A stretch of DNA of 64,000 bases. It comes from Escherichia phage D6. The notes below the pieces were generated by a model, which was given only the letters and a program-made list of their open reading frames with translations, searched no databases and was not told the origin of the DNA. A program made the translations under genes and the position numbers. Positions 28,167 to 45,452 of this stretch are shown here, one piece after another. The number at the start of each line of letters is the position of its first letter. The stretch's first letter is position 1. The stretch lies in sequence record NC_050154.1, one strand, 5' to 3'.

Positions 28167-30142
28167 TAAGCACCTCCCTGCTGAATTTCAGCCAGAATGT
28201 TGATCAGGTAGTCAACTGCTGCGCCAACCGTTGATTCGTTCTCGTCGTATCGACCAGCACTGATAAGAGCGTTTGCAGCTTCCTGCACATGGTCAAGTTC
28301 GGCACTGATTACCGTCAGATCGCGAGATGTAAACTGCACCGGGACGGATTTAAGGTACTCCAACGCTTTATCTGCTTCCTGATCAGCTTCAGTTGCCGCT
28401 TCTTCAGCGTCTTCCGGCGTTGGCTGTTGCTCTGGTGCTGTTTGTGGGTGTGATTCTGGCTCAACTACAGGTGCTAATTCAGGATCTGGCGTTACTTCGT
28501 TTGAATGATTTTGAAGGGCGTTATATACGTCCATAATGAAAAGGTTCTCCCCATCACCAAGTGGATACGCCACGTTTGGAAACGCTTTGCGGAAAAGAAT
28601 TTTCACTTGCGCCTTGAATGTTTTCAGGTCACTGCCAAACAGGTCTACATAGCCATCAATATGTTTCGACATGCTGGACACAACCAATTGGCCTGCAAAA
28701 TCTTTCAGCTCATCTTCATCAGGAAGATAGAGCAACTCGTACTGGCTGACTTCTTCATCTGTCAGTTTACGGTCATACGTAATGATACCGTGACGAGCAT
28801 ATTCGTAATACTGATCAGCCTGGTCAGGACGATCAAGCACGGCTTTATTTCCATCCGGCACAGCACCAACACCAGCCGGGCGAGATAGAAGTGCATAGTG
28901 GTATTTACCTACATCCTGGCTCTCTGGTTGTGATACTGGGTTCGTCTCGGGGTCTGTCTGTGGTGGTTCGGGGTCTTCCTGCTGGCCTGGTAACACATCA
29001 ACTTTATATTTATCTGCGTTATGCTCTCGGTAGGCTTTAAGTAATTTGGTTGCAGCATCTGCCAAACTGCCTCCTTTGACAGCACTGGCATTAATACTGA
29101 ATTTACCTTCAGGTGCTACTATCGTAACGAAATTGTCACTGCCGGACGTGACATAATTAACTTCAGCGCCATTATCCAGCACTGTTTTTCCGTCAATGGC
29201 AAGATTATGTTTTACATGTCGCAGCTGGTCGCTAAACGCTCGTTCTTTCGTTTTTTCACCTTTAGCAGACAACAATTTATCGCGTGTTGCTTGTAATTCC
29301 TCGTTGATGGCTTTCTGGGCATCAAGTTTTTTTTGCATCTCCGTAAGAGCAGCACGCTTTTCAGTCAGCCCACGTTGCGCAACTTCCACCTGATCAATCA
29401 TTATTGACCGTTCTTCTGCCAGTTTATCTGCTTCATTGAGATAACTCTCAATATCTGCCTTCATTTTGTCCTGGCGCTCTTTTGCTTTCTTAAATTTTTC
29501 GCTGTTACGCTCAATCAAATTAGATAGCGCCTGGCATACCTGGCTTAAAGAAACATCTCTCCCACCAATCGGGGCGACAACGTGAGTTACGTTACGCTTA
29601 TTAAGTAAAAACTGAAATGCAACAAGCTCGTCGTTACTCTTTATTTTTGCCCCGTCAGCTGTTGGAGAGTGGAAAATTATGCTTGTACTCTGCCCGTCAG
29701 TAAGCGGTATCTGCGCGGTCAAAACAGGGATATTAGCTACCCGACGTACACGACCGATAATCGCACCACCAATACAATTACGTCCATTTTCATCGGTCCC
29801 AGCTTCATCAGTCCCTGCCATAATATTCGTACCATTCAGGCCACGATTCAGCGCACGGACGAAAGCTCGCATTGTTTGAGCTAACCGAATTCTGGTTGTA
29901 GTTATGGACTCAAACATAGCTTCGTCAGACACAACCAGAATTTCATTGCCCATATAGGCAAGCTCAATATCTTCTAAGGTCGCCGCCTCAAAAATCAGGT
30001 CATCTTCGCTTAATTCTTCTGAAGACCAGCGACTTGGCATATAGCCGGGGATCGTATCAGCAAAAGTAGACTGAATATTAATTCGTAAAGGATTGTTAAT
30101 CATGCTCATCCTCCAGGCGCGCGATTTCTTCTTTAAGAGCAC
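28166..30142 (-). CDS. DarA-like antirestriction/head-internal protein
   Basis: 658 aa (P1 DarA ~639 aa); downstream of holin/antiholin-like genes as in the P1 lydA-lydB-darA operon; acidic Pro/Glu-rich segments. Confidence 0.4.
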   Translation of the reverse strand: MLLKKKSRAWRMSMINNPLRINIQSTFADTIPGYMPSRWSSEELSEDDLIFEAATLEDIELAYMGNEILVVSDEAMFESITTTRIRLAQTMRAFVRALNRGLNGTNIMAGTDEAGTDENGRNCIGGAIIGRVRRVANIPVLTAQIPLTDGQSTSIIFHSPTADGAKIKSNDELVAFQFLLNKRNVTHVVAPIGGRDVSLSQVCQALSNLIERNSEKFKKAKERQDKMKADIESYLNEADKLAEERSIMIDQVEVAQRGLTEKRAALTEMQKKLDAQKAINEELQATRDKLLSAKGEKTKERAFSDQLRHVKHNLAIDGKTVLDNGAEVNYVTSGSDNFVTIVAPEGKFSINASAVKGGSLADAATKLLKAYREHNADKYKVDVLPGQQEDPEPPQTDPETNPVSQPESQDVGKYHYALLSRPAGVGAVPDGNKAVLDRPDQADQYYEYARHGIITYDRKLTDEEVSQYELLYLPDEDELKDFAGQLVVSSMSKHIDGYVDLFGSDLKTFKAQVKILFRKAFPNVAYPLGDGENLFIMDVYNALQNHSNEVTPDPELAPVVEPESHPQTAPEQQPTPEDAEEAATEADQEADKALEYLKSVPVQFTSRDLTVISAELDHVQEAANALISAGRYDENESTVGAAVDYLINILAEIQQGGA

Positions 30143-30731
30143 GTGTCTTAGCTACTTCCTGAGACAAGGCAGCTTTAACATTACCCGTATCTTGCATTAC
30201 TTTGTCTGACTTGCTCTGGAGTTTAGACAGTTTGTCGTTAGCATTAGCGATATCTTCACGGAGTGCATCACGTGATTCTTTCGCTTCAGCTAATTTCTGA
30301 GCGTTAGATTTAACTCCCTGCCGCTTCTTATTTCCGTCATCAATATTTTTTGCTGCACGAGCAAGTTTTCGAGCTAATGACTTCTGGAAAGAAGTTGCTC
30401 CACGATTAAATAAAGCCGCAAGAGATTGCCCCAAAGCCGACATTGTTTTTACTGGCTTGAACGGTACTGTTTTACCATTCAGTTTGATCCCAGATATATC
30501 ACCGGTATCGTTAACCTGAACTTCCATTGTCTGTTCATCAATACCAATAAGGGTAAACGTGCGCGTCATGATCCCATCTTTCTTCCTGCCATTACTTGCA
30601 GGGATCACCCTCGCTATCTTGTAACCACCTTTGCTGATTTCTTTGACGAGTTTTGACAGCCCCTTTTCGTTTAACTCATCATAATTAAGAAGAACATAAT
30701 TATTTTTATTTGACATCCCAGTCTCCTTCAC
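30096..30731 (-). CDS. Hypothetical protein (Hdf-like position), coiled-coil C-terminus
   Basis: 211-aa ORF between antiholin-like and darA-like genes. Confidence 0.3.
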   Translation of the reverse strand: MKETGMSNKNNYVLLNYDELNEKGLSKLVKEISKGGYKIARVIPASNGRKKDGIMTRTFTLIGIDEQTMEVQVNDTGDISGIKLNGKTVPFKPVKTMSALGQSLAALFNRGATSFQKSLARKLARAAKNIDDGNKKRQGVKSNAQKLAEAKESRDALREDIANANDKLSKLQSKSDKVMQDTGNVKAALSQEVAKTRALKEEIARLEDEHD

Positions 30732-31152
30732 GCTTTTCGATCGTAAACTGGCGCTCTATGCAGTCATTGATAGGGAAAATGCGATAAAGCGGATTCAGTC
30801 GGCAGTTACCGTTAGTCAATGTGACTTTCAGATCCCACTTCGTTGGCTCAAGATATTTCGTATCGATGAGCAAATACTCTTCTCTCTCACCGCGTTTTGA
30901 GGCGTCAACTGGTCGCGTTTTCCCTGAAATAACCACAGATGGATTTTTCAGGTCTTGCAACCAATATTCGATTTGAGCATTGCTCACCCAGCTTCGCTTA
31001 ACACGTAGCGAAACAGGAAATGCTATAGCGGATTCTTTCACTACAGCGTCACCAATACTCAAAATCTCAACACTCTTGCGACGAAAAATGAAACGGTCAA
31101 TGATGGCAACAAATGCCATGATAAAAATGAAATAATTTCCAAAGTTACCCAT
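30706..31152 (-). CDS. Antiholin-like protein (LydB-like), one N-terminal TM segment
   Basis: 148 aa; N-terminal hydrophobic helix; directly follows the holin-like gene. Confidence 0.35.
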   Translation of the reverse strand: MGNFGNYFIFIMAFVAIIDRFIFRRKSVEILSIGDAVVKESAIAFPVSLRVKRSWVSNAQIEYWLQDLKNPSVVISGKTRPVDASKRGEREEYLLIDTKYLEPTKWDLKVTLTNGNCRLNPLYRIFPINDCIERQFTIEKREGDWDVK

Positions 31153-31478
31153 TATTTCTCTCCACCTTTTCCCCCATTCGCTATTACGCTTAAGAGATTC
31201 AAGACGTTACTAGCTCTGGACTTCAAGCCCTGTAAAATTTCACTACCGTTGTTACTGGCAATCAGAACAACGCAGAAAATGATACCTTCAGGCCATTCTT
31301 GGCTAACCGCCACCCCATACCCCGCAAGCCCGGCTGTTACCGCAGTAAACAATTCACTCGCAAGATTGAGCAGGGACGCAGAAATGCGCCCGTCTCTAAC
31401 TCCGAGAAGGAATACGCCGGTTCCACTTAGTAGGGATGTTATGACTACTACAGCCAGATTTTCATAATCTGCAAACAT
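31152..31478 (-). CDS. Holin-like protein (LydA-like), three predicted TM segments
   Basis: 108 aa with three hydrophobic helices and a charged C-terminus. Confidence 0.45.
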   Translation of the reverse strand: MFADYENLAVVVITSLLSGTGVFLLGVRDGRISASLLNLASELFTAVTAGLAGYGVAVSQEWPEGIIFCVVLIASNNGSEILQGLKSRASNVLNLLSVIANGGKGGEK

Positions 31479-31556
31479 ACCCCTCCAGAAATAACATCTA
31501 ATGCGCCACTAACTTAGTCAGTTTGTTATTTCCTTACAGGACATCTTCTAGAATCT

Positions 31557-31579
31557 CCCCCCTTAACATACAAGGGGGG
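31557..31579. promoter_or_regulatory. GC-rich palindrome that would sequester the cin RBS
   Basis: cccccctt-aacatac-aagggggg; the GGGGGG run is the only SD-like sequence, 5 nt before the cin ATG. Confidence 0.35.
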
Positions 31580-31583
31580 ACAT

Positions 31584-32144
31584 ATGCTTATTGGATACAT
31601 TCGCGTATCAACTAATGACCAAAACACCGCTTTACAACGAAACGCCCTTGAAAGCGCAGGATGTGAGCTAATTTTTGAGGATAAGGCGAGCGGCAAAAAG
31701 GCTGAACGCCCAGGGTTAAAAAAGGTTCTGCGTATTCTTTCCAGAGGTGACACCCTGGTCGTATGGAAGTTAGATCGCCTTGGGCGCAGCATGCGTCACT
31801 TGGTTGTGCTGGTGGAAGAGCTGCGTGACAGAGGCATTAACTTCCGGAGTCTCACTGACTCCATCGACACCAGTACACCAATGGGGCGCTTTTTCTTTCA
31901 CGTAATGGGTGCGCTGGCAGAAATGGAACGTGAGCTTATCATTGAACGTACACGCGCTGGACTTGATGCAGCTCGCGCAGAAGGTCGTATAGGTGGGCGT
32001 CGGCCTAAATACCAAGAAGAAACATGGCAGCAAATGCGGCGATTGCTGGAGAAGGGCATCCCTCGTAAGCAGGTTGCAATCATCTATGATGTGGCTGTTT
32101 CCACGCTTTATAAGAAGTTTCCGGCATCATCATTTCAATCCTAA
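31584..32144 (+). CDS. cin: Cin-type serine DNA invertase
   Basis: 186 aa; near-identical N-terminus to P1 Cin/Mu Gin/Hin (MLIGYIRVSTNDQNT ... GDTLVVWKLDRLGRS); catalytic Ser in RVSTNDQ. Confidence 0.9.
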   Translation: MLIGYIRVSTNDQNTALQRNALESAGCELIFEDKASGKKAERPGLKKVLRILSRGDTLVVWKLDRLGRSMRHLVVLVEELRDRGINFRSLTDSIDTSTPMGRFFFHVMGALAEMERELIIERTRAGLDAARAEGRIGGRRPKYQEETWQQMRRLLEKGIPRKQVAIIYDVAVSTLYKKFPASSFQS

Positions 32145-32160
32145 ACCTTGGTTTAAGAGA
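32135..32160. promoter_or_regulatory. cix-type crossover site (left)
   Basis: aaaccttggtttaagagaa with AACCTTGGTT centre typical of cix/gix/hix sites; overlaps the cin stop codon. Confidence 0.6.
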
Positions 32161-32762
32161 ACTCGGTACCAGTGGTGAAAAGATCCCCCTGTTGAGTACG
32201 GCTAACACATGGAGTGCGCGCCAGACTTTCAATGGCGGGATCACCGGGGCGCTGATAGGGAACGCCGACACCGCGACGAAATTGAAAACAGCCATAAACA
32301 TTAATGGCGTCAGGTTCGATGGTTCGGCTGACATTAATATCAATACTCTGGTATCGCGTGGTCGCGTAACGGCTCTGGGGGCGAATGCACAGGGGACATC
32401 CGGGATTCAGCTGTATGAGGCATACAACAATGGCTATCCTTCCCCCTATGGCAATGTGCTTCACCTTAAAGGTGCCACCGCTGCTGGCGAAGGTGAATTA
32501 TTCATTGGCTGGAGTGTCTCGAGCGGTGACCATGCGCCCGTACATATCCGTTCGCGGCGTGATATTGATTCTGCCAACTGGTCTGAATGGGCACAGGTCT
32601 ATACGTCAAAAGATTCAGTTCCCGGCGTTAATGCCAAAGGGAATCAGGATACCTCTGGTAATGCGGCTACAGCGACCAAATTGCAGACGGCGTGTACTAT
32701 CAACGGTGTCTCGTTTGATGGTTCTAAAAACATTGAGCTAACGGCGGAAGATTTAAATCTTG
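32146..32762. repeat. Left inverted repeat of the C segment
   Basis: Encodes LLSTANTWSARQTFNGGITGAL ... ELTAEDLNL, mirrored at 35800..36413. Confidence 0.8.
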
Positions 32763-33712
32763 AGCAAACCGTAGAATTAGCCGCAGGAGCATTGCAGAAA
32801 AACCAGAACGGTGCAGATATTCCGAATAAAGATAAATTCATACAAAACACAGGGGCCTGTCGTGCATTTAGCGGTCAGACTGATATCGATGGTTCACAAG
32901 GTGAATGGTCGACAGTTGCATTTATCTCGTGGCTGGAGAATAACGGAGCTTTCCGACATCCATACTGGATGTGTAAAGGGTCATGGTCCTATGCCAGAAA
33001 CAGGGTTATTACGGATACCGGTTGTGGAAATATCTGCCTTGCCGGAGCCGTGATTGAGGTTATGGGAACCCGCGGCGCAATGACCATACGCGTTACCACG
33101 CCGAGCACGTCCAGCGGTGGCGGAATCACTAACGCTCAATTCACTTATATTAATCATGGTGATGCTTACGCTCCTGGCTGGCGACGAGACTACAACACGA
33201 AAAACCAGCAGCCTGCATTTGCTTTAGGGCAAACAGGACGCAGGGTCGCAAATGATAAAGCTGTTGGCTGGAACTGGAATAGCGGCGTTTATGATGCAGA
33301 TATCAGTGGCGCATCGACATTAATCCTCCACTTTAATATGAATGCGGGGAGTTGCCCTGCTGTACAGTTCCGCGTGAATTACAGAAATGGCGGTATCTTT
33401 TATCGTTCAGCGCGTGATGGTTATGGCTTTGAAGCTAACTGGTCAGAGTTTTACACCACAACACGCAAACCCTCTGCGGGAGATGTTGGTGCATATACGC
33501 AGGCAGAATGTAACTCAAGGTTTATTACAGGTATTCGCCTTGGCGGTCTGTCATCTGTTCAGACATGGAATGGTCCTGGCTGGTCTGACAGGTCAGGTTA
33601 TGTCGTTACTGGTTCAGTTAACGGAAACCGTGATGAATTAATTGATACAACTCAGGCAAGGCCAATTCAGTATTGCATTAATGGAACGTGGTATAACGCG
33701 GGGAGTATTTAA
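32192..33712 (+). CDS. Alternative tail-fibre variable segment Sv' (promoterless, silent in this orientation)
   Basis: Shares the N-terminal ~200 aa with the S variable part and then diverges; no independent start codon. Confidence 0.7.
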   Translation: MSTANTWSARQTFNGGITGALIGNADTATKLKTAININGVRFDGSADININTLVSRGRVTALGANAQGTSGIQLYEAYNNGYPSPYGNVLHLKGATAAGEGELFIGWSVSSGDHAPVHIRSRRDIDSANWSEWAQVYTSKDSVPGVNAKGNQDTSGNAATATKLQTACTINGVSFDGSKNIELTAEDLNLEQTVELAAGALQKNQNGADIPNKDKFIQNTGACRAFSGQTDIDGSQGEWSTVAFISWLENNGAFRHPYWMCKGSWSYARNRVITDTGCGNICLAGAVIEVMGTRGAMTIRVTTPSTSSGGGITNAQFTYINHGDAYAPGWRRDYNTKNQQPAFALGQTGRRVANDKAVGWNWNSGVYDADISGASTLILHFNMNAGSCPAVQFRVNYRNGGIFYRSARDGYGFEANWSEFYTTTRKPSAGDVGAYTQAECNSRFITGIRLGGLSSVQTWNGPGWSDRSGYVVTGSVNGNRDELIDTTQARPIQYCINGTWYNAGSI

Positions 33713-33714
33713 TT

Positions 33715-34248
33715 ATGATGCACTTAAAAAATATTACTGCTGGCAACCCTAAAACAAAAGAGCAATACCAGCTAACAAAGCAATTTAACATCAAATGGCT
33801 TTATTCAGATGATGGAAAAAACTGGTATGAGGAACAAAAGAATTTCCGGCCAGACACTTTGAAAATGGTCTATGACCATAACGGCGTTATTATTTGTATT
33901 GAAAAGGATGTTTCAGCAATTAATCCGGAAGGCGCAAGCGTCGTTGAATTACCTGATATTACAGCAAATCGCCGGGCTGATATTTCGGGTAAATGGATGT
34001 TCAAAGATGGCGTAGTGATAAAGCGAACTTATACCGAGGAGGAACAGAGGCAGCAGGCAGAGAATGAAAAGCAAAGCCTGTTGCAACTTGTCAGGGATAA
34101 AACCCAGCTATGGGACTCACAGCTACGGCTGGGTATCATTTCCGACGAGAATAAACAAAAATTAACCGAGTGGATGCTCTATGCGCAGAAGGTCGAATCC
34201 ACAGACACCTCCAGCCTGCCAGTAACGTTTCCAGAACAACCAGAATGA
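33715..34248 (+). CDS. Tail-fibre assembly protein U' (silent alternative)
   Basis: 177 aa; highly similar to the minus-strand U ([22 protein letters not shown] ...). Confidence 0.75.
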   Translation: MMHLKNITAGNPKTKEQYQLTKQFNIKWLYSDDGKNWYEEQKNFRPDTLKMVYDHNGVIICIEKDVSAINPEGASVVELPDITANRRADISGKWMFKDGVVIKRTYTEEEQRQQAENEKQSLLQLVRDKTQLWDSQLRLGIISDENKQKLTEWMLYAQKVESTDTSSLPVTFPEQPE

Positions 34249-34251
34249 AAC

Positions 34252-34278
34252 AAGGCCCGCTATCGGGCCTTAATTTTT
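34252..34278. terminator. Bidirectional hairpin between convergent U' and U
   Basis: ggcccg-ctat-cgggcc followed by T-rich tract. Confidence 0.5.
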
Positions 34279-34807
34279 ATTCAGGCTTTTGTGGCCATTC
34301 AGGATTTGCCGTATCCACACGGCTGACCAGAACACTGTAGCGTTCCCATGACTCCAGTCGTGCGCGTTCCTCATCCGTCGCCATATTCAGTCTGACAGCG
34401 CGTTCCAGTGGCTGAATAACGTTTTCTGCTTCGGAAAGTAACGCGGCCTTTTGTGATTCGGCCTGTTGTTGTTGCTCGTCTGCCGTATAAATCCGTTTAA
34501 CCACAGCTCCGTCCTTAAACATCCACTTCCCTGAATCATCGGCACGACGATTGGCTGTTATATCTGGAATCTCAACGACGCTAAAGCCTTCGGGATTAAG
34601 CGTTGAGGCATCTTTGGTTATGGCAACAATAATATTATTTTCGTCGTATACAATCTTTATGGTGTCGTCCTGAAAGTTATTTACTTCTTCATACCAGTTT
34701 TTACCGTCTTCGGACCATAACCAGATAACATCAAAATTCTTTGTTAGCTGATATTGTTCTTTCGTTTTAGGATTTCCAGACTTAATATTTTTTAAATGCT
34801 GCATCAT
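34277..34807 (-). CDS. U: Tail-fibre assembly protein U (expressed orientation)
   Basis: 176 aa Tfa-like protein directly downstream of S. Confidence 0.75.
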
Positions 34808-37633
34808 TTACACCTGTGCGACGTTATACCATGTGCCATTGATGTATTTTTGTATTGGCCTGAAGATGGCTTCATCATCGCCATCTACTTCACCAATGAT
34901 TCTTAATCCGGTAATTGCGTGTCCGGCTTTTTCATAACGACCACCACGCGCCATCAATTGAACAACACGTGTGCCAAGTCGGACATCTCTCACATAGCGT
35001 GAGTCAAAATTGCCATAATTGCCGGGAATAACTTGCGCACCACAAAGCCAGTTACCGTTATTATCCATGTACGCCTGACCATCGGTGCCATTGGCTGTCC
35101 TTGAGTTATTAATCATGTAGATGCCAAATTGCTTGTTCCCCAGTCCACCTATCATGAACTTTCGGTCGGCGTGATTCTGGCGAAGTAACGCCTGAGCGCT
35201 ATCAGTGTTAACTATATTTTTCCCAAAGATAGCGTTGTTATCGCGCATCTGAATCCACATACCATTACTGCTGTTAATAGCAAAACGGTCTGAAAGTGTC
35301 TCCCCTGAAACATTAAGACCACGTCCCATCGAAACAGCGCCAGTAGCGTTATTAATCCATAATGGCCTTAATCCGTTATAAGTCCCCATGTTGTCACCGG
35401 AGTTTGTCAACATGAAGTATGTATTTGAACCATCATTACGAATAAAGAATCCGTAATTACCATAAGCAATACGTAGGCCGTTTGCTGATTTTGATATGAC
35501 TTCGCCATTTACAATGGCATTGACAAGAACATACAAAGCATCCCATTTAAGATTCATCAGGTCTTTTGTTGTGGTACTTTGTTTGCTTCTCCATTTGAAA
35601 TATTCATTGCCGTTGTCGCCTGTCTCAAACCACATGTATGAATCAGTATCGCTGTCGGCATCATTTTTAAAACCAATCTTCGCCCAGTCAGTATTCCGAA
35701 TCCAGGCAAGGATTGAGTCGTTTTCAAAAGTAAGTCCACCGGACAAGGTATCGCCTGTCTTTTGAACCGCGTTATCAGCCTTGTTTACCGTTTCCTGTAG
35801 ATTTAAATCTTCCGCCGTTAGCTCAATATTTTTAGAACCGTCAAACGAGACGCCGTTGATAGTACATGCTATCTGCAATTTGGTCGCTGTAGCCGCATTA
35901 CCAGAGGTGTCCTGATTCCCTTTGGCATTGACGCCGGGAACTGAATCTTTTGACGTATAGATCTGTGCCCACTCGGACCATGCCGCAGCAGTGCTATCTC
36001 TTTTGGATCGAATGAAAGCAGGTGCATGAGCGCCATTTGTGCCACTCCAGCCAATGAATAACTCACCTTCGCCAGCAGCGGTGGCACCTTTAAGGTGAAG
36101 CACATTGCCATAGGGGGAAGGGTAGCCATTGTTGTATGCCTCATACATCTGCAATCCAGTAGCAGCACCTTGCGTTGTACCGGTAAGCGCAGTAACGCGT
36201 CCTCTAGACGTAATTGTTGGTATCGAAATGTTCGTAGAACCATCGAACCTGACGCCATTAATGTTTATGGCTGTTTTTAATTTCGTCGCGGTATCGGCGT
36301 TCCCTGTCAGCGCCCCGGTGATCCCGCCGTTGAAAGTCTGGCGTGCACTCCACGTGTTAGCCGTGCTCAACAGGGGGATCTTTTCACCGCTGGTACCGAG
36401 TTCTCTTAAACCAAGGTATTGGATAACGGCCAGTGTGCTTGTTTTAGCCAGAATATCGCGACCGACTGACGTTAAATCAGTCTGCGCTACCGTATCCTTA
36501 CCGGTGAAATAAGGCAGTTTGTTTGCACCAGTCGCAAGGCCAGCGAGCGCGGTTAAAGTTGCATCCAGAGGCTGTTTGCCTGCCAGCGCATTTGTCATTG
36601 TTGTCGCAAAGTTCGGGTCATTACCAAGTGCTGCGGCAAGCTCATTCAGGGTATCAAGAGCTTCTGGTGATGAACCAACCAATGCGGATATGGCAGCTCT
36701 TACATAAGCGGTCGTAGCAATCTGCGTGTTATTCGTACCCTGTGCAGCGGTAGGCGCAGTAGGTATTCCCGTTAATGCAGGACTTGCTAAAGGAGCTTTA
36801 AGAGCCAGAGCATTGTTGATAGTTGTGCTGAAATTCGGGTCGTTATTGATCGCAGCCGCTATTTCTTTCAGCGTGTCCATCGTTCCCGGAGCACCATTGA
36901 TAAGCGCATTTATAGCAGCATAGACAAAGGCCGCATTTGCGATCTGTGTGTTGTTTGTACCGGGTTCAGGTGTCGGCGAAGTCGGCGTACCTGACAGATG
37001 CGGACTATCGAGCGGAGCTTTTGTATCAACCAAATCATGGAGAGTTTTGACAGCCAGAGGTGTAGCCGCTTTTCTTTCTTCTGTACTGCTTATTTCATTA
37101 GAGAATTCGACACCAACAGCACGGTTAACCCGGTATTTAAGCACAATCATTTCTTTAGTCACAGCCGTTGCGCCGTTAGGCACGATAACTCGACATAATT
37201 CAATTTGATTCTGCCCAATAGTATTGTCCGTACGCGCGTAAATTCTTGCAGCACTGACAGAAGATGCGCTATCTACCTGTGTCGTTTTTACACCATGTTC
37301 AAAATTGGCTTCCAGCACAATAATGTTGGTAGCCCCAGCCTTTACCGAGACAGTCACATCTTCTATTTGCTGAACGGATATCTGAACATTATTTACATCT
37401 ACTGAAGCAGCCCCTTTACCTTCTGAGTTTTCAGAAGTTATACGAACACTCAACCCTGTGCCGGGAACTGGTTCAAATCCACAGTAAAAGCCAGGCAAAA
37501 CAATATTTTTAAGTTTTCTGTTAAGAGCCGAACTACTATAGAGTTCGAAATATTGAACATCAGCAAGCAAAGGCTGTGAGACACCAGAGGATAGTGTCAT
37601 TATGTTGTTCGTTTTATCAGCCCCCATAATCAA
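34808..37633 (-). CDS. S: Tail fibre protein S (constant part fused to the currently selected variable part)
   Basis: 941 aa; spans cixR; C-terminal half includes the inverted-repeat region. Confidence 0.8.
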   Translation of the reverse strand: MIMGADKTNNIMTLSSGVSQPLLADVQYFELYSSSALNRKLKNIVLPGFYCGFEPVPGTGLSVRITSENSEGKGAASVDVNNVQISVQQIEDVTVSVKAGATNIIVLEANFEHGVKTTQVDSASSVSAARIYARTDNTIGQNQIELCRVIVPNGATAVTKEMIVLKYRVNRAVGVEFSNEISSTEERKAATPLAVKTLHDLVDTKAPLDSPHLSGTPTSPTPEPGTNNTQIANAAFVYAAINALINGAPGTMDTLKEIAAAINNDPNFSTTINNALALKAPLASPALTGIPTAPTAAQGTNNTQIATTAYVRAAISALVGSSPEALDTLNELAAALGNDPNFATTMTNALAGKQPLDATLTALAGLATGANKLPYFTGKDTVAQTDLTSVGRDILAKTSTLAVIQYLGLRELGTSGEKIPLLSTANTWSARQTFNGGITGALTGNADTATKLKTAININGVRFDGSTNISIPTITSRGRVTALTGTTQGAATGLQMYEAYNNGYPSPYGNVLHLKGATAAGEGELFIGWSGTNGAHAPAFIRSKRDSTAAAWSEWAQIYTSKDSVPGVNAKGNQDTSGNAATATKLQIACTINGVSFDGSKNIELTAEDLNLQETVNKADNAVQKTGDTLSGGLTFENDSILAWIRNTDWAKIGFKNDADSDTDSYMWFETGDNGNEYFKWRSKQSTTTKDLMNLKWDALYVLVNAIVNGEVISKSANGLRIAYGNYGFFIRNDGSNTYFMLTNSGDNMGTYNGLRPLWINNATGAVSMGRGLNVSGETLSDRFAINSSNGMWIQMRDNNAIFGKNIVNTDSAQALLRQNHADRKFMIGGLGNKQFGIYMINNSRTANGTDGQAYMDNNGNWLCGAQVIPGNYGNFDSRYVRDVRLGTRVVQLMARGGRYEKAGHAITGLRIIGEVDGDDEAIFRPIQKYINGTWYNVAQV
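35800..36413. repeat. Right inverted repeat of the C segment
   Basis: Reverse complement of 32146..32762 at high but imperfect identity. Confidence 0.8.
36399..36426. promoter_or_regulatory. cix-type crossover site (right)
   Basis: ttctcttaaaccaaggtattggataa, mirror of the left site with the same AACCAAGG centre. Confidence 0.6.
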
Positions 37634-38076
37634 CCCTCAACTTGCTCGATTGTCATGAGAATACTGTAACGTTTACCTTTATAGAGGGTATCTTGCTGGG
37701 TGCAAAGCACACCAAAAGCCCGTTCCTCAGCATCAACAAGCACAAGCGTGTTAAAATCGTAAGGCGTGTTATCCGGCATTCTTTCTTGTGGGAAGGCTGC
37801 ATTGATAGTGATAATCCCATCCACGCTGGACAATATCAGATCGGACACAGCAAACTGTTGAGCGTCACTCAATTTAAAATCGAGTGGAATGTCCGCTATA
37901 TTCCAGCCTCCTGCACCATTAGCAGTTACCAGACTAGATTTGCACCAATACGCCTTAGAGATAACAAAACGCGCACCTTTGCCGATCGCCGACTCAGCGC
38001 GGCGTGAATAATAGTAGGAAAGCAATTGTGCCTTATACAGGCGGTTACCATCTCTTGCCTTTAAATTTTCAGCCAT
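37630..38076 (-). CDS. Tail fibre / baseplate-associated protein (R-like)
   Basis: 148 aa; immediately upstream of S. Confidence 0.4.
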   Translation of the reverse strand: MAENLKARDGNRLYKAQLLSYYYSRRAESAIGKGARFVISKAYWCKSSLVTANGAGGWNIADIPLDFKLSDAQQFAVSDLILSSVDGIITINAAFPQERMPDNTPYDFNTLVLVDAEERAFGVLCTQQDTLYKGKRYSILMTIEQVEG

Positions 38077-38170
38077 ACGAACATAGCTCCTTCATAAGCA
38101 ATGAACCAAAGGAGAGTATGCTCAGTTTGTGATTTCCGTTGTTCTTCCCCCAAATGCGGGGGAGGAATTA

Positions 38171-39016
38171 TTAAACAGGTTGAAGGTGGTAATCCAAAGG
38201 CCACGCATCGAGTGGGGTTACATCAAGATGTAATTGCTTTTCTGCCGTTCGGTTCGGTATGGCGTTAAGAGAAATATTGTCTACCTGGCAGGAGGTATCA
38301 CTACGGGATAGCATATCAGCCATACTCTCAGTAACATAAACACCTTCAATTACCGAAACATCCGTAGACAAGCAATTTAGTATTTCTGCCACTTCAGGGA
38401 ATACAGCACTAAGCCGAAACGAGACGCCATCAAAAACAATATGCAATGGCAATAAAGGGGCTATTACTGTTTCGAAGTCAGATAACAATTTCTGTACAGC
38501 GGCTTCTTTATCCTGCTCTCCATATGAGCGATATAGCTTGTTCTGATCAACAACGACCAGCCCCCTTGATGTCAGGAAGAACTCACCGAATTGAGCCTGT
38601 GCCGTAGGTATTTCTATTTCGGTCGCAAAATATGAACCATAGGGGTGTTTTTCTATATTTACAGGTGCATACAGCGGTTCCCAACTAACAGGAATACAAC
38701 CGAATTCACGCCAGAATGTCTGCTCAATTGGCAAGATAGTGCCTTTAAAGTGCACTTCATCTAAACGTTGTGCCAGCAGCATTGGCCTACGAGCCTTATC
38801 TTTTTCAGTGATAACGAAAAAACGCCCGTATTCAGCAATGCGGGCATCCATGTCCTCACTGTCCATAGTGAAGAAGGATTTTCTGTTACTTATTCTTGTT
38901 AATATTGGTTCTACTGCCTCATTCCAGACATCCTGTAAAGCGTCTATAAATGCACTCCAGAGATGTGAATCCTGTTTTACTTTAGTTAATCGTTCCTTAA
39001 GCCAATTATCTTTCAT
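38171..39016 (-). CDS. Baseplate protein (gene 16-like position)
   Basis: 281-aa ORF between baseplate J-like and R-like genes. Confidence 0.35.
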   Translation of the reverse strand: MKDNWLKERLTKVKQDSHLWSAFIDALQDVWNEAVEPILTRISNRKSFFTMDSEDMDARIAEYGRFFVITEKDKARRPMLLAQRLDEVHFKGTILPIEQTFWREFGCIPVSWEPLYAPVNIEKHPYGSYFATEIEIPTAQAQFGEFFLTSRGLVVVDQNKLYRSYGEQDKEAAVQKLLSDFETVIAPLLPLHIVFDGVSFRLSAVFPEVAEILNCLSTDVSVIEGVYVTESMADMLSRSDTSCQVDNISLNAIPNRTAEKQLHLDVTPLDAWPLDYHLQPV

Positions 39017-39026
39017 GCTAACCTCA

Positions 39027-40457
39027 TTACGGGTAAGAAATGCTGAACGTTGAAGATTTCACGTCAAGATAAATGAAGTCATTAAAGTAAACTGCATCTT
39101 TCATATTTTGTATTGTTATGTCATAAGAGAGAAACATATCCAGCGACTCTATTACTCGCCAAATATCTTTAACTTTTACCTGTGCATAACATTGCTGAGA
39201 ATCATCATCACTCTGTAGTAATAAACTGAATGATGACGAATCACGACCAAAATTTTCTTCCAACGCTGCTTTAATAGCATTTTGAGCGTCGTCTATCAGA
39301 ACATTTTTACGTGCAATACCTGTAAATTTTATAGTAAATGGTTGTTCATTTGTATCTACATACTCAAACCGCTTGTTCAACTCATTTGGAACATTCTCTA
39401 GAGCTTTCAGTATTTCTGATTTTAGCTGAGCCTGGCTTACACCTGGCTTATGTCCGCAAAAGAAAATCTTGTTGATGTTTCGAACGTCAAACCCAGTTAT
39501 TTTCTCTTGCAACGCTTCGCCCCAAACGTTCAACCATGAAGTTCCATGAACAACATTCTGAATGAATTGGCGATAATCACCGCCCCATACCACTTGTTCA
39601 TCGTATGCAACATAATACTGAGCACGATTTCGAGTTTCTTCTGTAGTTTCCATACCACTACCACCGGTAATGATCGAATCAGTTTTAAACTCTAGTGACT
39701 CCACATATTGAGCGATATTTCCAGCCGGTTCTAACTTTTGTCCTTCAGCCAAAGTATAGTCGCCAAGGCTAGCCATAACATCGATTCGAACCTGACAGCC
39801 TGCTGGAGGCATCATACCCATAGAACCATCACCAAACTTGACTCCAAGTTGTTCTGTAGGTTTATATGCCAATGAATAGTGCTTACTCTTGTCTCTGGAC
39901 ATTCTAAATAATGGGTTATATGTCCATTTTTCTTCTACGCCATCTGTAATAACATAAACATCCAGGCTAGAGACTTCTTTTGTTAATTCTCTGGAAAGCA
40001 ACAATGTCAGAAATAAAGTTTCCTTCTCAATATCAAATGTAACGCTAACAGCTTCATGCTGTTTAGTTTCTACGCCAGAAACAGTTCCTCCAGCAGGAAT
40101 TACAACACTGTTAATAATTGCCAAAGGTGTTTGGTCATTGGCAAGCAATTCAGCCCCGGCTGGTAACGTAATATCCCGATCAGTTTTATTGGTTATAGAC
40201 GTTGTTCCGTATGAAGCACTAACAAATCGCCCTACGTAGCTACGGTCTTCAGCAACCGCTAAAATACTTGAGCGGCGCGTAGCCGTTGAAATAAGTCCCT
40301 CAGTGAGGCCGCGGCTTGCAAATGTACGGGCAATATAAATAAGCTGTGATCCGAATATAGCGTGCATCTGCACAAACTGACTATTTACAAATCGTGACCA
40401 CCATGTGTTTTCATTTAACTTGGCGTTAAATTTGTCCAGTAATTCTGTAATCGTCAC
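39027..40457 (-). CDS. Baseplate J-like protein (BplA-like)
   Basis: 476 aa downstream of the W/gp25-like gene; classic myovirus baseplate order. Confidence 0.45.
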   Translation of the reverse strand: MTITELLDKFNAKLNENTWWSRFVNSQFVQMHAIFGSQLIYIARTFASRGLTEGLISTATRRSSILAVAEDRSYVGRFVSASYGTTSITNKTDRDITLPAGAELLANDQTPLAIINSVVIPAGGTVSGVETKQHEAVSVTFDIEKETLFLTLLLSRELTKEVSSLDVYVITDGVEEKWTYNPLFRMSRDKSKHYSLAYKPTEQLGVKFGDGSMGMMPPAGCQVRIDVMASLGDYTLAEGQKLEPAGNIAQYVESLEFKTDSIITGGSGMETTEETRNRAQYYVAYDEQVVWGGDYRQFIQNVVHGTSWLNVWGEALQEKITGFDVRNINKIFFCGHKPGVSQAQLKSEILKALENVPNELNKRFEYVDTNEQPFTIKFTGIARKNVLIDDAQNAIKAALEENFGRDSSSFSLLLQSDDDSQQCYAQVKVKDIWRVIESLDMFLSYDITIQNMKDAVYFNDFIYLDVKSSTFSISYP

Positions 40458-40828
40458 GCGCCCACCCCACTTGATTTCTGCATAACAATATCCATGCTCC
40501 CACCTTTCGCATAAAAACTAATTAATAAAGAATCTTCAGAAATTGATGTGCAACGAATCCCCTGCACATCCAAACCTGGCAAGTCTTGTCGTAGTTTTTT
40601 CATCATTCTCCCTTCAATAGCCACTTCAACTATGTGCGAAGTTTCAGAGCCGAATGGTTCATGCTTAAATTCTTCCATTGGATTCCCCCAAGAGGGTAAA
40701 CCATAAACACTCCCTTCAGGGGTTCGTAGCCACTCGTCAAGTCGGGCCATCCATGCTGCGGAACTTCCTTCTGCAATAATGACACCGCTCTCATTCGTTT
40801 GAAGTCTTGCGTCTATTTCATAAAGCAT
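40454..40828 (-). CDS. Baseplate wedge gpW/gp25-like protein
   Basis: 124 aa; directly downstream of the tape-measure gene and coupled to the J-like gene. Confidence 0.45.
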   Translation of the reverse strand: MLYEIDARLQTNESGVIIAEGSSAAWMARLDEWLRTPEGSVYGLPSWGNPMEEFKHEPFGSETSHIVEVAIEGRMMKKLRQDLPGLDVQGIRCTSISEDSLLISFYAKGGSMDIVMQKSSGVGA

Positions 40829-40833
40829 CTTTA

Positions 40834-43800
40834 TTAATCCTCAAGCAGAGCATCCAGCGACGGGTCATTAATAGTTGTGCTAGCACGTGGTCGCGGTTGC
40901 GGCTGCGATGTTTTGACAACCTTATCCGGATCGCCTTTTGTATTGTTCTTGTTCACATTCAGAAGATCGTTCAGGATAGAGCAGATGTTATCCAGCGCCT
41001 TCAACATAGCAGGATCGTTATTTATAGTGTCAGTAGTTAATGGTTGTCTTATTCCGCTTCGTGCGAGATCTGTTACAGTAGGAAGCTGTGGTGGCATAGC
41101 AAGAAAAGGTTCTTGCACGGCTGACGCAGAGCCAAATATGGCATTATTGGCTTCGTTTGATATACCTCTAATGCTATCTGCGGTTTGTTGAATACCATTA
41201 TTCAGCCAACTACCGGCGCTCCTGGTAAGCGGGCTAATAGCCCTAGCAATTGTTGAGTTCTGCCCAGTAGCCTGATAAACCAAATCATTAACAATGCCAG
41301 TGCCATCTACCCCACCAATAAGTCGTGAAACGTTATCGCCAATTGCAGGTAACACAGCAGAGCTAATACGTTTCAGACCTGTTAATGACGAGTCAAACAA
41401 AGAGCCAAGCACCCCCTTATCTTCACCATCAATTACCTTGTATCCATTGTCATAAACTGGAATCCCCCTTGAGTTTACAGGGATTTTTTCACTCTCACTT
41501 GCCGAAGAAACACCGGAAAGAAGATCCACTGAAGGCATATCGCGTTCAGCTTTTGGTCTTTTTTGTAAAGCGTCTCTTATATCAGTTACCTGGCTTGCTT
41601 TTTGAAATCCAAAAGATTTACCGGTTAAGCTGGATATCTTTTCAGTAAGAGCCTGATCCATTCCTTTCGCTTTTTCGGAAAGCGAAGATATAGAACCAAA
41701 CGAAGTCGCCGACGCAAAATCCTTAATCAGGCCAAGGCTTGTACCAGCAAGGCTGGTAGCCGCACCTCCAAATAAATTACCTACCCCGCTGTCATTTATA
41801 GCGATTAATCTCTCAAGCAGACTTGATGGAGAGCCAGTATTAACATCAACGTTCTCTGGATTAATCGGTTGCGATTGATTGCCTGTTTTTTGTGGCTTTT
41901 TGACTGCCTGGGCATATTGTGCAACCTCAATTGGCTGTTGTGTTGCTGTCGGAACGGCATTCAAAACTGGTTGAGCTGGAGATTTTCCATTAACATATTT
42001 TATCTTGCGACCAACACTATATTGCGAATCGCGGGCAATTAGCTGACCACCATTTTCTTTCTGAATTTTATTAATCCGCGCCAATGTTTCGTCAGAGAAT
42101 TGTCCCTCCCATCGACCAGTATTTGTGTTAAATGCCCCAAGAGCATTCTTTATGAACTCATTGTTAACCGCCGGGTTTCCACCTTCTTTCGTCGCTATTG
42201 CACGAACTAATTGCGTCATAACCTCTGGGTTGCTGACGTCTATTTTTTCATTAGGCGAGACGCCAAGATATTTGCTGACGTTATCAATATATTGATTAGT
42301 ATTGTTCTCCTTTGGGGGTGCCCATTTGGAAATAATACTGGATACCGTCTGTAGCTTCTGATACCCAGCAGCGGCGCTGGTGCCGTTGTAATAGCTTGAC
42401 ACCTGGTTTGCCAGCGCCCTGATCCCTTCTTCAGGCGTGTTAAATCGCGCAAAACGTTGTTCACCTTTTGCATTTGGTGCTTCCAGCGTCGCCCCTTCCT
42501 GATTAGCGAAAACAAGGTTGCCGAGATTATTATTCCGGTAATTGCGGTTTTTGGCGTTGCTGCCACCAATATTCAGATCCGCTGCAATGGTGTTGCTGGT
42601 AGGGGCATTAAATTCAGCCGGGGAAGTATACCCGTGCTCACCAACACCATCTTCACCATCACGCCCGCCTTGTAGCTGCTCACCTAAAGAATGAATCGCA
42701 TCGACAGTTTTTTTGGTGCCGTCTTCAACAGCTTTTTTTACTTGTTTTGTGTTTTCGTCAGTGGATAAAAATGTATCCTTAAGGCTACCAAAAACAGATT
42801 TTGTGATATCTACCGCGCCGTTAACACCACGAGCAATATCTCCGGTATCAAAATTCTGAAGTTTTTCACCTGCTCTTTCAAATCCTAGCGCAGAAATTCC
42901 TTTCCCTATCAAGTTTGTTGCGCCCGACACCAAGCCCCCCATATCGAGCACATTAGCTGTTGCGTAAGCCGTTTTTTGCTGTTCGGATACAGCATCATCG
43001 TCACTTAAACCAAAGGCTGCCTTTTGCGCCTCTGTATCTGTGTAACCATCTATGGCGTCATATCCAGCCATTGCCAGCGAACCGATGATAGGGACCGCTC
43101 TTGCCGCAGTGGATGCTGCTGATTTAACTCCTATTTTTGCAGCACTTTTGAGGGCTACAGATTCAGTTTTTTTCTTTGCAATGGCTTCGCCGGTTTTAAT
43201 GGTGGCATCTTCAGCCACAACACCAGCTGACTTCACGGCCTTAGCAGTATTTTTTGTTTCCTTTGCAATCCCCTTTGATGTATCGCTGATAGTGCTTACA
43301 TCTTTGGGTTTGCTGATCTCATTTTTAACTACTTTTGCTGCTCCGACACCAGTGCCAGCTGCAGCGCTACCGGCAGCAACTTTTTCGCCAACGGAGAGTG
43401 CTTTTTTCCCAAGATTGCGGCCTTTCCTTTTCGATTTATTCCGTTTATTTTTTCCCGTTTGATCACCAATATTGATTTTATTTCTTCTGCTTGCTCGATT
43501 TTTCCAGAGATCACTTAAGCCGAACTTATTTCCAGAAGACACTGATTTCCGAAGCTTAACTATCTCGTCAGAAACATTTTCCAGACCATCAATTATTTTG
43601 TTGTCATTGGTCTGAAGGATTTTGGTTTGCTCTTCTACTGCTTGTGCGGATTTTGTCTCAACAGCGTTATTGAACGCTTTTGCAGATGTTGCTTTTTGAG
43701 AATTCACCGCCGCCGGATAAGTAATTACTGGTGATATCGCTTTCGAGGTTGATGTTTCTTTTTTCCCCTTTTCTACCCATTCTTTAAGAGATTCTGCTTT

Positions 43801-44616
43801 ACCTGTGATCTCTTTAGTTATGTCGTACATGCCTCGAGCCGCCATCCATAACGGCCCACCAGCACCGACACCAGCTGCATTTGTTAAAGACTCTTCACTG
43901 GAAGACTGATTGCCATCTACCCCCATAATGGAACCTAGCTTTCTGAGAAAGCCAGCTTGTAATTTTGCGTCGGCTTTACGTGCGTTCTGCAATTCTTTTT
44001 TTCTGGCTATATCCTCATTGCTTTTTTGGGATACAAAACGTCCATTACTATCCCGCAGCGGGCCTTTTAGACTTTGGGGGGATTGTGGTTCAAGAGGGGC
44101 TGAATTAGCCGCTACCGGTATAAAACCGTCCGATTTTCGGATGGTCTGACGTGATTGCACGGAGCGAACACTTTCTGGTGTGTTCGTTGCAACGATAGCG
44201 CGGTCCACGGTTTGGTTTATCGGTGCCCTTTCCTTTTTAGCAGGGAGACGTTTTTTATATGGGTTAGTTTGGGCATCTCTAACGCTATCAGATGTACTTT
44301 GCTCGTAGTCTTTACGCCTGCGTGATAGTCTGTTGCTAACTCTGCCTTGCTTTTCGTCCTGTTGAGTTATGGTGCCTACCCCAGAAAGAATGGCGTCTTT
44401 TACCTCAGCAAGAGCTTTAAGTTCGTTTGTGCTCGCCTCCTGAATAGCGTCAATTATTGCGATACGGTCTTTATTCTCTTTCAAAATAACCTCTCTTTTA
44501 CCAGCGCGATCAACGTTTCCCGGCTTGAGCTTTGTATTTTTCTTCCAGGGCTTTTGACATATGGAGTGCTCGCCATTGCGGTAATTGTTCAACGTCGCTA
44601 ACGGGCTGATATCCAT
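40834..44616 (-). CDS. sit: Tape-measure / structural injection transglycosylase (Sit-like)
   Basis: 1260 aa; Ala/Gly/Ser-rich repetitive body; central region resembles lytic transglycosylase domains; position before baseplate genes. Confidence 0.55.
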   Translation of the reverse strand: MDISPLATLNNYRNGEHSICQKPWKKNTKLKPGNVDRAGKREVILKENKDRIAIIDAIQEASTNELKALAEVKDAILSGVGTITQQDEKQGRVSNRLSRRRKDYEQSTSDSVRDAQTNPYKKRLPAKKERAPINQTVDRAIVATNTPESVRSVQSRQTIRKSDGFIPVAANSAPLEPQSPQSLKGPLRDSNGRFVSQKSNEDIARKKELQNARKADAKLQAGFLRKLGSIMGVDGNQSSSEESLTNAAGVGAGGPLWMAARGMYDITKEITGKAESLKEWVEKGKKETSTSKAISPVITYPAAVNSQKATSAKAFNNAVETKSAQAVEEQTKILQTNDNKIIDGLENVSDEIVKLRKSVSSGNKFGLSDLWKNRASRRNKINIGDQTGKNKRNKSKRKGRNLGKKALSVGEKVAAGSAAAGTGVGAAKVVKNEISKPKDVSTISDTSKGIAKETKNTAKAVKSAGVVAEDATIKTGEAIAKKKTESVALKSAAKIGVKSAASTAARAVPIIGSLAMAGYDAIDGYTDTEAQKAAFGLSDDDAVSEQQKTAYATANVLDMGGLVSGATNLIGKGISALGFERAGEKLQNFDTGDIARGVNGAVDITKSVFGSLKDTFLSTDENTKQVKKAVEDGTKKTVDAIHSLGEQLQGGRDGEDGVGEHGYTSPAEFNAPTSNTIAADLNIGGSNAKNRNYRNNNLGNLVFANQEGATLEAPNAKGEQRFARFNTPEEGIRALANQVSSYYNGTSAAAGYQKLQTVSSIISKWAPPKENNTNQYIDNVSKYLGVSPNEKIDVSNPEVMTQLVRAIATKEGGNPAVNNEFIKNALGAFNTNTGRWEGQFSDETLARINKIQKENGGQLIARDSQYSVGRKIKYVNGKSPAQPVLNAVPTATQQPIEVAQYAQAVKKPQKTGNQSQPINPENVDVNTGSPSSLLERLIAINDSGVGNLFGGAATSLAGTSLGLIKDFASATSFGSISSLSEKAKGMDQALTEKISSLTGKSFGFQKASQVTDIRDALQKRPKAERDMPSVDLLSGVSSASESEKIPVNSRGIPVYDNGYKVIDGEDKGVLGSLFDSSLTGLKRISSAVLPAIGDNVSRLIGGVDGTGIVNDLVYQATGQNSTIARAISPLTRSAGSWLNNGIQQTADSIRGISNEANNAIFGSASAVQEPFLAMPPQLPTVTDLARSGIRQPLTTDTINNDPAMLKALDNICSILNDLLNVNKNNTKGDPDKVVKTSQPQPRPRASTTINDPSLDALLED

Positions 44617-44630
44617 ATAGAGTCAGGTTG

Positions 44631-45452
44631 TTAATAATGGTTAGCCATCCATTCAGATCTAATTGATGGGATAAACTCTCTATTGAGAAAGGGGACGTAC
44701 AGTGTGGTTGTCACATCTGCACCCTCCTTAGCGTTTTTGCAATGTTGCGGAGGCAGGATCAGTCGGCTTGTGCCTCTCTCAATAGACATTTTCAGGCCGT
44801 GGCGTAGGTCTTTTTGCATAAGCTGTATGCGAGCCACAAGCGGAGTAAATTCGGTTTCAAGCGCCATGCTTTCAATGATGTCAAAGCGTCGGTTAGCGGC
44901 CTGCGTGAAGTCCTCCGGATCGTCTTCAAGCGCCGTGCATAAAGCGAGTTCAGCAATTCGCATCCGTGCCACGCCAGCACTGTATTCGGGGCTTTTCATA
45001 TCAGGAAGTGACGCTCGCATTCGTTCAAGGAGTTCCGCGCCTTTCCCGGTTAATGGTTTAAGTATCCAGTCAGTTGGTATTCCATTTACTGGTACGTTGG
45101 TTTTCACGTAAGGAGGTACAGTGAGTATTTCTACTGTTTGGGCCAGGTCGCTCAGGTTAATATCTGCATGATGCGTATTACCGCAGTGACTGCACTCATA
45201 GGAGTAGGTCATTACTGCATCGGGGCGCGAATTAACAAATATCCACCAAAGAGCAGTTCTGCGATCCTGAACTGTCCAGTTAGCACTGTCGTTAATTTCA
45301 CCATCCTGCATAGAGTTAAGGTACTCTGTAGTAGTTGCCTCATCTTCTGCCGGGTTCAGGTCAGAATATTTCAGCGCATCCTTCACGGTAGGGGCGTGGA
45401 ACTGAATTTCTGTCTCAGGACGGGAAGGCAATGGGAATTTTGGAATGTTCAA
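44631..45452 (-). CDS. Tail-assembly-associated protein with Zn-ribbon (PmgB-like position)
   Basis: 273 aa; CSHCG motif; first gene of the tail operon. Confidence 0.3.
   Translation of the reverse strand: MNIPKFPLPSRPETEIQFHAPTVKDALKYSDLNPAEDEATTTEYLNSMQDGEINDSANWTVQDRRTALWWIFVNSRPDAVMTYSYECSHCGNTHHADINLSDLAQTVEILTVPPYVKTNVPVNGIPTDWILKPLTGKGAELLERMRASLPDMKSPEYSAGVARMRIAELALCTALEDDPEDFTQAANRRFDIIESMALETEFTPLVARIQLMQKDLRHGLKMSIERGTSRLILPPQHCKNAKEGADVTTTLYVPFLNREFIPSIRSEWMANHY

Follow-up and report, generated by a model that had tools for sequence, protein, structure and literature searches.

The serine invertase gene cin stands beside two convergent sets of tail-fibre genes in Escherichia phage D6 (NC_050154.1), of which a stretch of 64,000 nucleotides, here called the window, was analysed. 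D6 has been described as carrying a cin-gpS-gpU-gpU'-gpS' tail-fibre inversion region, the part of its genome most similar to P1 (PMC6799933). The coordinates of all features are collected in Table 1. On the minus strand, the frame 34808-37633 is open across cixR, and S most likely starts at the ATG at 37627, which has a GAGGG ribosome-binding site. The continuous ORF 34808-37627 bears out the original prediction, in which S ran uninterrupted through cixR into Sv and then U. The prediction that the plus-strand Sv'-U' has no start also agrees with the sequence: the open Sv' frame (32141-33712) lacks an ATG start, an internal TTG at 32192 being the sole start listed. Over its unique part, Sv' shares 98% identity with the Sv' of plasmids L004 and L007. 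The same prediction called S-Sv-U the expressed orientation; the continuity of Sc and Sv is real, but "expressed" covers only those molecules that the assembly represents, and the orientation in the window is an assembly snapshot.

The convergent genes U' and U are separated by a terminator-like hairpin with a GC-rich stem of 8 to 9 bp and T-rich tails on both strands. A search upstream of R for the P1 late-promoter motif (AAGTTACTT-N4-TANAAT) returned none, the lone match, at 9022, being at chance level. Tandem Repeats Finder and self-BLAST detected no tandem repeats in Sc in the window, which has one copy of the 222-bp 'b' repeat known from P1.

Table 1. Features of the tail-fibre inversion region, in window coordinates.
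Feature	Position	Strand	Evidence and remarks
cin, serine DNA invertase, 186 aa	31584..32144	+	Pfam Resolvase PF00239 5e-51, HTH_7 PF02796 3e-18
Recombinational enhancer (sis), candidate, in 5' part of cin	31602..31673	.	matches NC_005856-annotated enhancer
cixL, core TT at 32148-32149	32138..32161		minus-strand match to TTCTCTTAAACCAAGGTTTAGGAT, 0 mismatches
Invertible C segment between two crossover cores, ~4.27 kb	32150..36412		cixL/cixR bounds; flipped in relatives
Left inverted-repeat arm, encodes proximal ~208 aa of Sv'	32150..32773	+	repeat search, blastn; 93-98% identical to P1
Sv', silent alternative C-terminal fibre part, 520 aa + stop	32150..33712	+	without own start; in frame with Sc across cix core
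U', tail-fibre assembly chaperone for S'	33715..34248	+	Pfam Caudo_TAP 1.5e-36; 94.9% aa identical to P1 U'
Bidirectional terminator-like hairpin	34251..34272	.	consensus scan
U, tail-fibre assembly chaperone, downstream of S as assembled	34277..34807	-	Pfam Caudo_TAP 2.4e-37; 96% aa identical to P1 U
S as assembled, 939 aa	34808..37627	-	continuous ORF; Pfam Gp34_trimer, Phage_fiber_2; 78.7% aa identical to P1 S
Sv, aa 406-939 of S	34808-36412	-	inside segment
Right inverted-repeat arm, proximal part of Sv	35786..36412	-	repeat search, blastn; diverged patch ~35982-36279
cixR, core AA at 36413-36414	36401..36424		plus-strand match to TTCTCTTAAACCAAGGTATTGGAT
Sc, aa 1-405 of S	36413-37627	-	outside segment
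R, first gene of R-S-U tail-fibre operon	37630..38076	-	AAGGAG ribosome-binding site; backbone-type, 45% aa identical to P1 R

Recombinase, enhancer and crossover sites

Cin is full length and intact, with an N-terminal resolvase catalytic domain followed by a C-terminal helix-turn-helix, and the catalytic Ser of the YIRVST motif is present. It shares 97.8% amino acid identity with P1 Cin across all 186 residues, from which it departs by four conservative changes. The candidate enhancer within cin is identical at 68 of 72 nucleotides, with four substitutions, to the element annotated in NC_005856 as "enhancer of Cin-mediated C-segment inversion," and on this correspondence 31602-31673 is the putative counterpart of that enhancer. 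The stop codon of cin is overlapped by cixL.

The two cix sites, 24 nt each and mutually inverted, flank the ~4.27-kb segment; cixL is identical to P1 cixL over 40 nt, and cixR is identical to P1 cixR. Crossover sites had been placed at the outer ends of the repeats, and the exact P1 matches at 32138-32161 and 36401-36424 locate them there. The cix query had no match in 100 shuffles, and allowing up to three mismatches revealed no further site in the window. A relaxed 14-mer search gave three matches (0.68 expected by chance), two of which are the cix sites; the third is a weak match at 33511 with two mismatches. With only two convincing crossover sites, multi-site inversion of the Min type known from p15B, or of the shufflon type, does not apply, and the arrangement is that of a simple two-state switch.

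Inverted-repeat arms and relationship to P1

The segment is bordered by inverted-repeat arms whose likeness to each other is far above chance level. A repeat search resolved them into two pairs offset by a 3-nt indel (32138-32335/36227-36424, 198 nt, 93%; 32408-32773/35786-36151, 366 nt, 86%), and blastn joined them in a single 646-nt alignment of 84.8% identity. The arms of the original prediction are therefore real, but their limits, given as 32146-32762 and 35800-36413, become 32138-32773 and 35786-36424 when the cix sites are included. The statement that they differ at several codons was right in kind and too modest in extent: nucleotide divergence is ~15%, and 183 of 219 encoded residues are identical, leaving 36 that differ plus a 1-aa indel. 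In P1 the two arms differ at only 6 of 623 nt (99% identical), compared with ~85% identity here.

The right-arm patch at ~35982-36279 is 71-81% identical to P1. No clear donor was identified, the best alleles, in other P1-like plasmids, reaching only 93-94%. Other plasmids carry the right-arm allele of the window on Sv' instead of Sv, and in some relatives the arms are as short as 155-188 bp, with both cix sites kept. The ~210-aa "shared" arms might conceivably be no constant region at all but a third module, for specificity or for the shaft, that reassorts on its own, a reading that we consider unlikely. If it were true, a single flip would switch two fibre modules together; homology between the arms could be dispensed with and would be subject to diversifying exchange. 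The diverged arms also make the element a handy natural substrate for telling site-specific from homologous exchange.

The C segment of P1 (NC_005856, 31660-37841) has the same gene order, cin, cixL, Sv', U', U, Sv, cixR, Sc, R, with arms of ~0.62 kb and a segment of ~4.26 kb. From 31582 to 37036 the window runs collinearly with the C(+) reference of P1, in the same orientation and with 90.9% nucleotide identity overall; mosaic patches occur at 32782-33081 and 35982-36279. S has 939 aa here and 987 aa in P1, Sc being the shorter here. DNA-level likeness to P1 is confined to 31582-37036, the rest of the window having no such match, and the amino acid identity of R, LydA, and LydB to their P1 counterparts is just 34-45%. 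In contrast, the backbone is 99.3% identical over 20 kb to pYU39_89 (CP011430), whose own cassette differs from that of the window in being shorter, with an inverted repeat of 263 bp and a different set of fibre genes. The locus had been called an invertible C segment with cix sites. Cin, the cix sites, and collinearity uphold the segment, but its carrier is a D6-like phage-plasmid with a P1-like cassette and not P1 itself.

The unique central ~3 kb of the segment (window ~32790-35800) is 92-93% identical to the S-U-U'-S' region of Mu/D108. The G segment of these phages, acted on by Gin at gix, follows the same logic, with a constant fibre N terminus outside and alternative C termini and chaperones inside. 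Mu, however, has short 34-bp repeats only, gin lies on the opposite side of the segment, and the gix sequences differ from cix. The Min system of p15B and plasmid shufflons likewise vary a tail fibre or pilus tip by site-specific inversion, although the shufflon enzyme, Rci, is a tyrosine recombinase and Cin a serine recombinase. Min is a close relative of Cin (PMC6906374).

Both orientations among relatives

A relative in the opposite orientation was found in IMG/VR. Contig 2778261223_000007 (L013 and L025) is ~99.7% identical to the window with the whole segment flipped; L013 aligned end to end with a synthetic inverted window over 5,747 nt, with 16 mismatches and no gaps. The 54-mer predicted for the inverted right junction occurs exactly once in IMG/VR, in this contig. 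Its S ORF is an uninterrupted Sc-Sv' of 999 aa, and its cin segment is identical to that of the window (554 nt, 100%). The case in which only one orientation is ever observed, together with an inactivated cin, is thus not what was found. The 15% divergence of the arms allowed the exchange to be mapped, and it falls in a 28-bp interval, 32145-32172, that contains the cixL core. A search of IMG/VR for a near-identical relative in the orientation of the window gave 23 contigs with the same right-junction 54-mer, of which none exceeded ~98% identity across the segment.

A second case is provided by the sister Salmonella plasmids CP092511.1 and NZ_CP092628.1 (92,361 bp each): the stretch from one cix site to the other is exactly inverted in one relative to the other, with 99.93% reverse-complement identity, and the flanks have zero mismatches. 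In PLSDB, 125 records covered at least 80% of a query for the cin-Sv' junction. The synthetic cin-Sv junction was covered to at least 80% in 26, and the true number of cin-Sv junctions is below 26, as at least two of the best 25 of these 26 that were inspected (H125 and H126) are actually Sc-Sv junctions. That both orientations occur in nature, with exchange at cix, is direct evidence for inversion among the relatives.

It could be argued that the parts are recognizable here but that the segment no longer inverts, for example through arm divergence or enhancer changes, leaving only Sc-Sv to be made. Arms of just ~85% identity and an enhancer with 4 substitutions in 72 positions would fit such a state, and published P1-like plasmids include some in which cin or the C segment is disabled (PMC6906374). 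We consider it highly improbable for this element, given that cin is full length, that the flipped relative shares its cin segment without a single difference, that the cix sites are those of P1, and that relatives with arms of 155-188 bp retain both of them. Nor need arm divergence matter, since serine invertases require only the cix sites and the enhancer, and no arm homology.

Even less probable is that the flips arose by RecA-dependent homologous recombination between the 0.6-kb arms, which as inverted repeats could in principle recombine, and not by Cin at cix: in the flipped IMG/VR contig, the arm in its entirety moved along with the unique part (1 mismatch in 939 nt past the junction), the switch point lies within 28 bp including the cix core out of an arm of ~636 bp, no mismatch separates the cin-adjoining arm of one Salmonella plasmid from the distal arm of its sister, and 15% divergence strongly disfavours RecA exchange. 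Arm alleles do seem to have been reassorted between Sv and Sv' across plasmids, which suggests some homologous exchange over evolutionary time.

Inversion by Cin at cix is thus the reading that we retain. All the hallmarks of a Cin/Gin/Hin/Pin (Din) serine-invertase switch that were checked by sequence were present, namely, a small recombinase (about 185-190 aa in this family), two inverted, imperfectly palindromic sites of roughly 24-26 bp whose 2-bp cores match, a candidate enhancer, both orientations, and in-frame fusions. We conclude that the region 32150-36412 is almost certainly a Cin/cix site-specific inversion switch of the P1 C segment type in a D6-like plasmid prophage. The system is an already known one, the well-known P1-type C segment, and the switch in the window appears to be fully functional and ordinary of its kind.

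Predicted fibre switching and annotation

In the proposed mechanism, Cin would bind the two inverted cix sites, swap strands at the 2-bp core, and flip the 4.27-kb segment, probably assisted, by analogy with P1, by the enhancer within cin and by host Fis. Both the Fis dependence and the late promoter are carried over from P1 and Mu. S begins outside the segment, so that Sc would be transcribed with R from the minus strand and would read over cixR into the variable part that happens to adjoin it. The assembled orientation would yield Sc-Sv (939 aa) and then the chaperone U, and the inverted one Sc-Sv' and then U'; the Sc-Sv' fusion, predicted at 925 aa, is in frame across the cix core. The hairpin between U and U' would terminate the transcript in both states. 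Since either variable part can join Sc, a lysogen population would yield virions with two alternative fibres. These presumably confer two host ranges; we infer a change of host range on inversion from the behaviour of P1 and Mu.

Predictions of the host range of D6-like phage-plasmids in E. coli and Salmonella, and of how far they can transduce, are affected accordingly, because these elements can display either of two receptor-binding fibres; some of them carry resistance genes. The main use of the present analysis is correct annotation, and it has little significance beyond that. Assemblies are legitimate in either orientation, and the plus-strand ORF that pipelines call a "phage tail protein," as in NZ_CP092628.1, is the silent half of a fibre gene.

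Organization of the Cin/cix switch

Window positions 31582-37036 follow the phage P1 reference collinearly (90.9% identity) and share its C(+) orientation; the P1 annotation of the matching region reads cin, enhancer, cixL, Sv', U', U, S, cixR. A 24-nt cix query gave only two matches in 64 kb, where shuffled sequences led us to expect none. Each crossover site lies at the outer end of its arm, as the original prediction had placed them; the two are inverted relative to each other, and every base of both equals its P1 counterpart.

Features of the C segment and adjoining genes in the window
Feature	Position	Strand	Remarks
cixL	32138-32161	-	exact match to 24-nt cix query; core TT 32148-32149
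U'	33715-34248	+	after Sv'
Hairpin	34251-34272		GC-rich, T-tails on both strands; between convergent U and U'
U	34277-34807	-	after S
ORF containing S	34808-37633	-	from ORF map
cixR	36401-36424	+	2 mismatches to 24-nt cix query; core AA 36413-36414

Collinearity and P1-identical cix sites bear out the earlier reading of a P1-type segment, which nevertheless understated the divergence of the arms. A repeat search of the window identified two arm pairs with a 3-nt offset between them, 32138-32335/36227-36424 (198 nt, 93%) and 32408-32773/35786-36151 (366 nt, 86%), which blastn joins in a single 646-nt alignment at 84.8%. The arms had been said to differ at several codons; the actual difference amounts to 36 residues among 219 aligned, together with a 1-aa indel, whereas the P1 arms differ at 6 of 623 nt.

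Cin (186 aa) has resolvase and HTH_7 domains and differs from P1 Cin by four conservative changes (97.8% identity); the counterpart of the P1 inversion enhancer lies inside cin at 31602-31673 (68/72 nt identical). As predicted, the S ORF runs uninterrupted across cixR and is followed by U, and the Sv' frame, open over 32141-33712 (+), has no ATG. S likely starts at ATG 37627, which is preceded by GAGGG and lies 2 nt past the R stop, giving a protein of 939 aa with tail-fibre domains. Both U (96% identical to its P1 counterpart) and U' (95%) are chaperones with a Caudo_TAP domain. Every defining feature of a P1-type Cin/cix switch that is open to sequence testing was found. A Min-type multiple-inversion system is ruled out because there are only two sites, and a shufflon because the recombinase is of the serine type. 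The Cin/cix inversion system is textbook knowledge, and the P1-type switch is already known and described for D6-like prophages.

Cin acts on cixL and cixR and, by analogy with P1, would also require the enhancer and host Fis. Sc (aa 1-405), outside the segment, would be cotranscribed with R. The Leu codon CTT holding the core is common to both sites, so both fusions are in frame: Sc-Sv (939 aa) as assembled and Sc-Sv' (925 aa) after a flip, each followed by its own chaperone. From the precedent of P1 and Mu, a flip would be expected to alter host range.

A relaxed cix search gave three matches versus 0.68 expected by chance, two of the three being the real sites. Inside Sv', at 33511-33524 (+), lies a weak cix-like 14-mer, TAACTCAAGGTTTA, with two mismatches, at best a possible quasi-site. 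The silent Sv' (window 32192-33712 (+)) is annotated in NZ_CP092628.1 (locus L003, 1600-3120) as a free-standing "phage tail protein" with an internal TTG start; such a gene call is an artefact that annotation pipelines produce from invertible fibre genes. cin, Sv', and U' are co-oriented (31584-34248, +). No convincing terminator was found in this stretch between cin and Sv', its sole plus-strand terminator-like match (31783-31797) lying within cin, and read-through from the cin promoter could therefore allow low-level U' expression in the silent state.

Both orientations among relatives

IMG/VR contig 2778261223_000007, represented by two abutting loci (L013 and L025), matches the window at ∼99.7% identity across lydAB-cin and the entire C segment, but its segment faces the other way with respect to cin and Sc. 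L013 aligned end to end with a synthetic inverted window (5747 nt, 16 mismatches, 0 gaps) but gave no better than 97.9% identity, and 15 gaps, when aligned with the as-assembled window. In L025, Sc is fused to the left arm, followed by Sv' and U'; the resulting Sc-Sv' ORF is uninterrupted and encodes 999 aa. The 54-mer predicted for the right junction of an inverted segment has exactly one occurrence in IMG/VR, on this contig. The 15% divergence of the arms allowed the exchange point to be mapped: it lies in a 28-bp interval that includes the core, after the final base specific to the flank (32144) and before the earliest SNP specific to the arm (32173). Its position favours site-specific over homologous recombination.

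Two S. Thompson plasmids, CP092511.1 and NZ_CP092628.1, both of 92,361 bp and with identical left flanks, differ by an exact inversion between the cix sites (99.93% reverse-complement identity), the cin-adjacent arm of one being identical to the distal arm of the other. In PLSDB, a cin-Sv' junction query was covered to at least 80% in 125 records and a synthetic cin-Sv junction query in 26; among the best 25 of the latter, at least two (H125 and H126) lack cin and match the Sc-Sv side only, so the true cin-Sv count is below 26. For plasmid NZ_CP122833.1, whose backbone is that of P1, a flip of the entire segment was confirmed. Two further IMG/VR contigs, L010 (4215 nt) and L014 (4311 nt), are about the size of the C segment and begin or end in the arms, consistent with assembler breaks at repeats where a sample holds both orientations.

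Variation of arms and shaft

The left arm is P1-like (93-98%), and a right-arm patch (∼35982-36279) is 71-81% identical to P1, its nearest alleles (93-94%) being in other P1-like plasmids. Arms span 623-636 nt at 99% in P1 and CP088384.1 and 616 nt at 98% in the S. Thompson plasmids, and the high-identity repeat is just 155-188 nt in CP055626.1 and NZ_CP122910.1. In NZ_CP122910.1, an allele like the window's right arm (93%) is joined to Sv', not Sv. The short repeats and this allele placement indicate that arms reassort independently of the distal receptor-binding parts; given the wide range among relatives, the window is not anomalous but occupies one position in a mosaic continuum. The switch is evidently retained without need for arm homology.

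An Sc element present once in the window (∼36717-36993) is duplicated in tandem in L025 (3196-3694), where the two copies have diverged (82%) and repeat with a period of 222 nt; in P1, the same 222-bp repeats are annotated as "b1/b2." The copy difference is a 74-aa shaft-length polymorphism in the constant fibre part.

The cassette and its backbone

P1-like DNA begins 2 bp ahead of the cin ATG and stops ∼610 bp into Sc. The flanks compared (30000-31581 and 37037-39500) gave no DNA-level match to P1; synteny is kept there, although R, LydA, and LydB share no more than 34-45% identity with their P1 counterparts. Given this confinement between diverged flanks, cin, the C segment, and distal Sc behave as an exchanged cassette in a D6-like backbone. 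In the cassette, Sv matches P1 at 98% over its unique part, and an Sv' patch (32782-33081) is divergent (59-72% identity to P1). A second short P1-like island, at 20807-21178 (89-92%), corresponds to c4/icd immunity-region annotations of P1 records, in surroundings otherwise dissimilar to P1.

A query made of the structural region (37000-57000) was covered to at least 80% by 82 E. coli/Salmonella plasmids; identity was 99.3% with Salmonella plasmid pYU39_89 (NZ_CP011430.1) and 98.9-99.0% with several of the set, whose typed members are rep_cluster_1704 plasmids of ∼89-94 kb. pYU39_89 has been described as a plasmid prophage of the D6 type that shares 99% identity with phage D6 save for the tail-fibre inversion region, which is where D6 most resembles P1 (PMC6799933). 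Judged by sequence, the element is not P1, and a D6 backbone with a P1-like cin-C cassette fits that description, so that the element is probably D6 or closely related to it. The invertible cassette of pYU39_89, the nearest relative by backbone, is a different and shorter one (L009, 1700-4300): its inverted repeat measures 263 bp (93.5%), its cix is a variant (TTTCTCCTAAACCAAGGTTTAGGATTG), and its fibre and chaperone genes are not those of the window; the adjoining cin is 98.7% identical.
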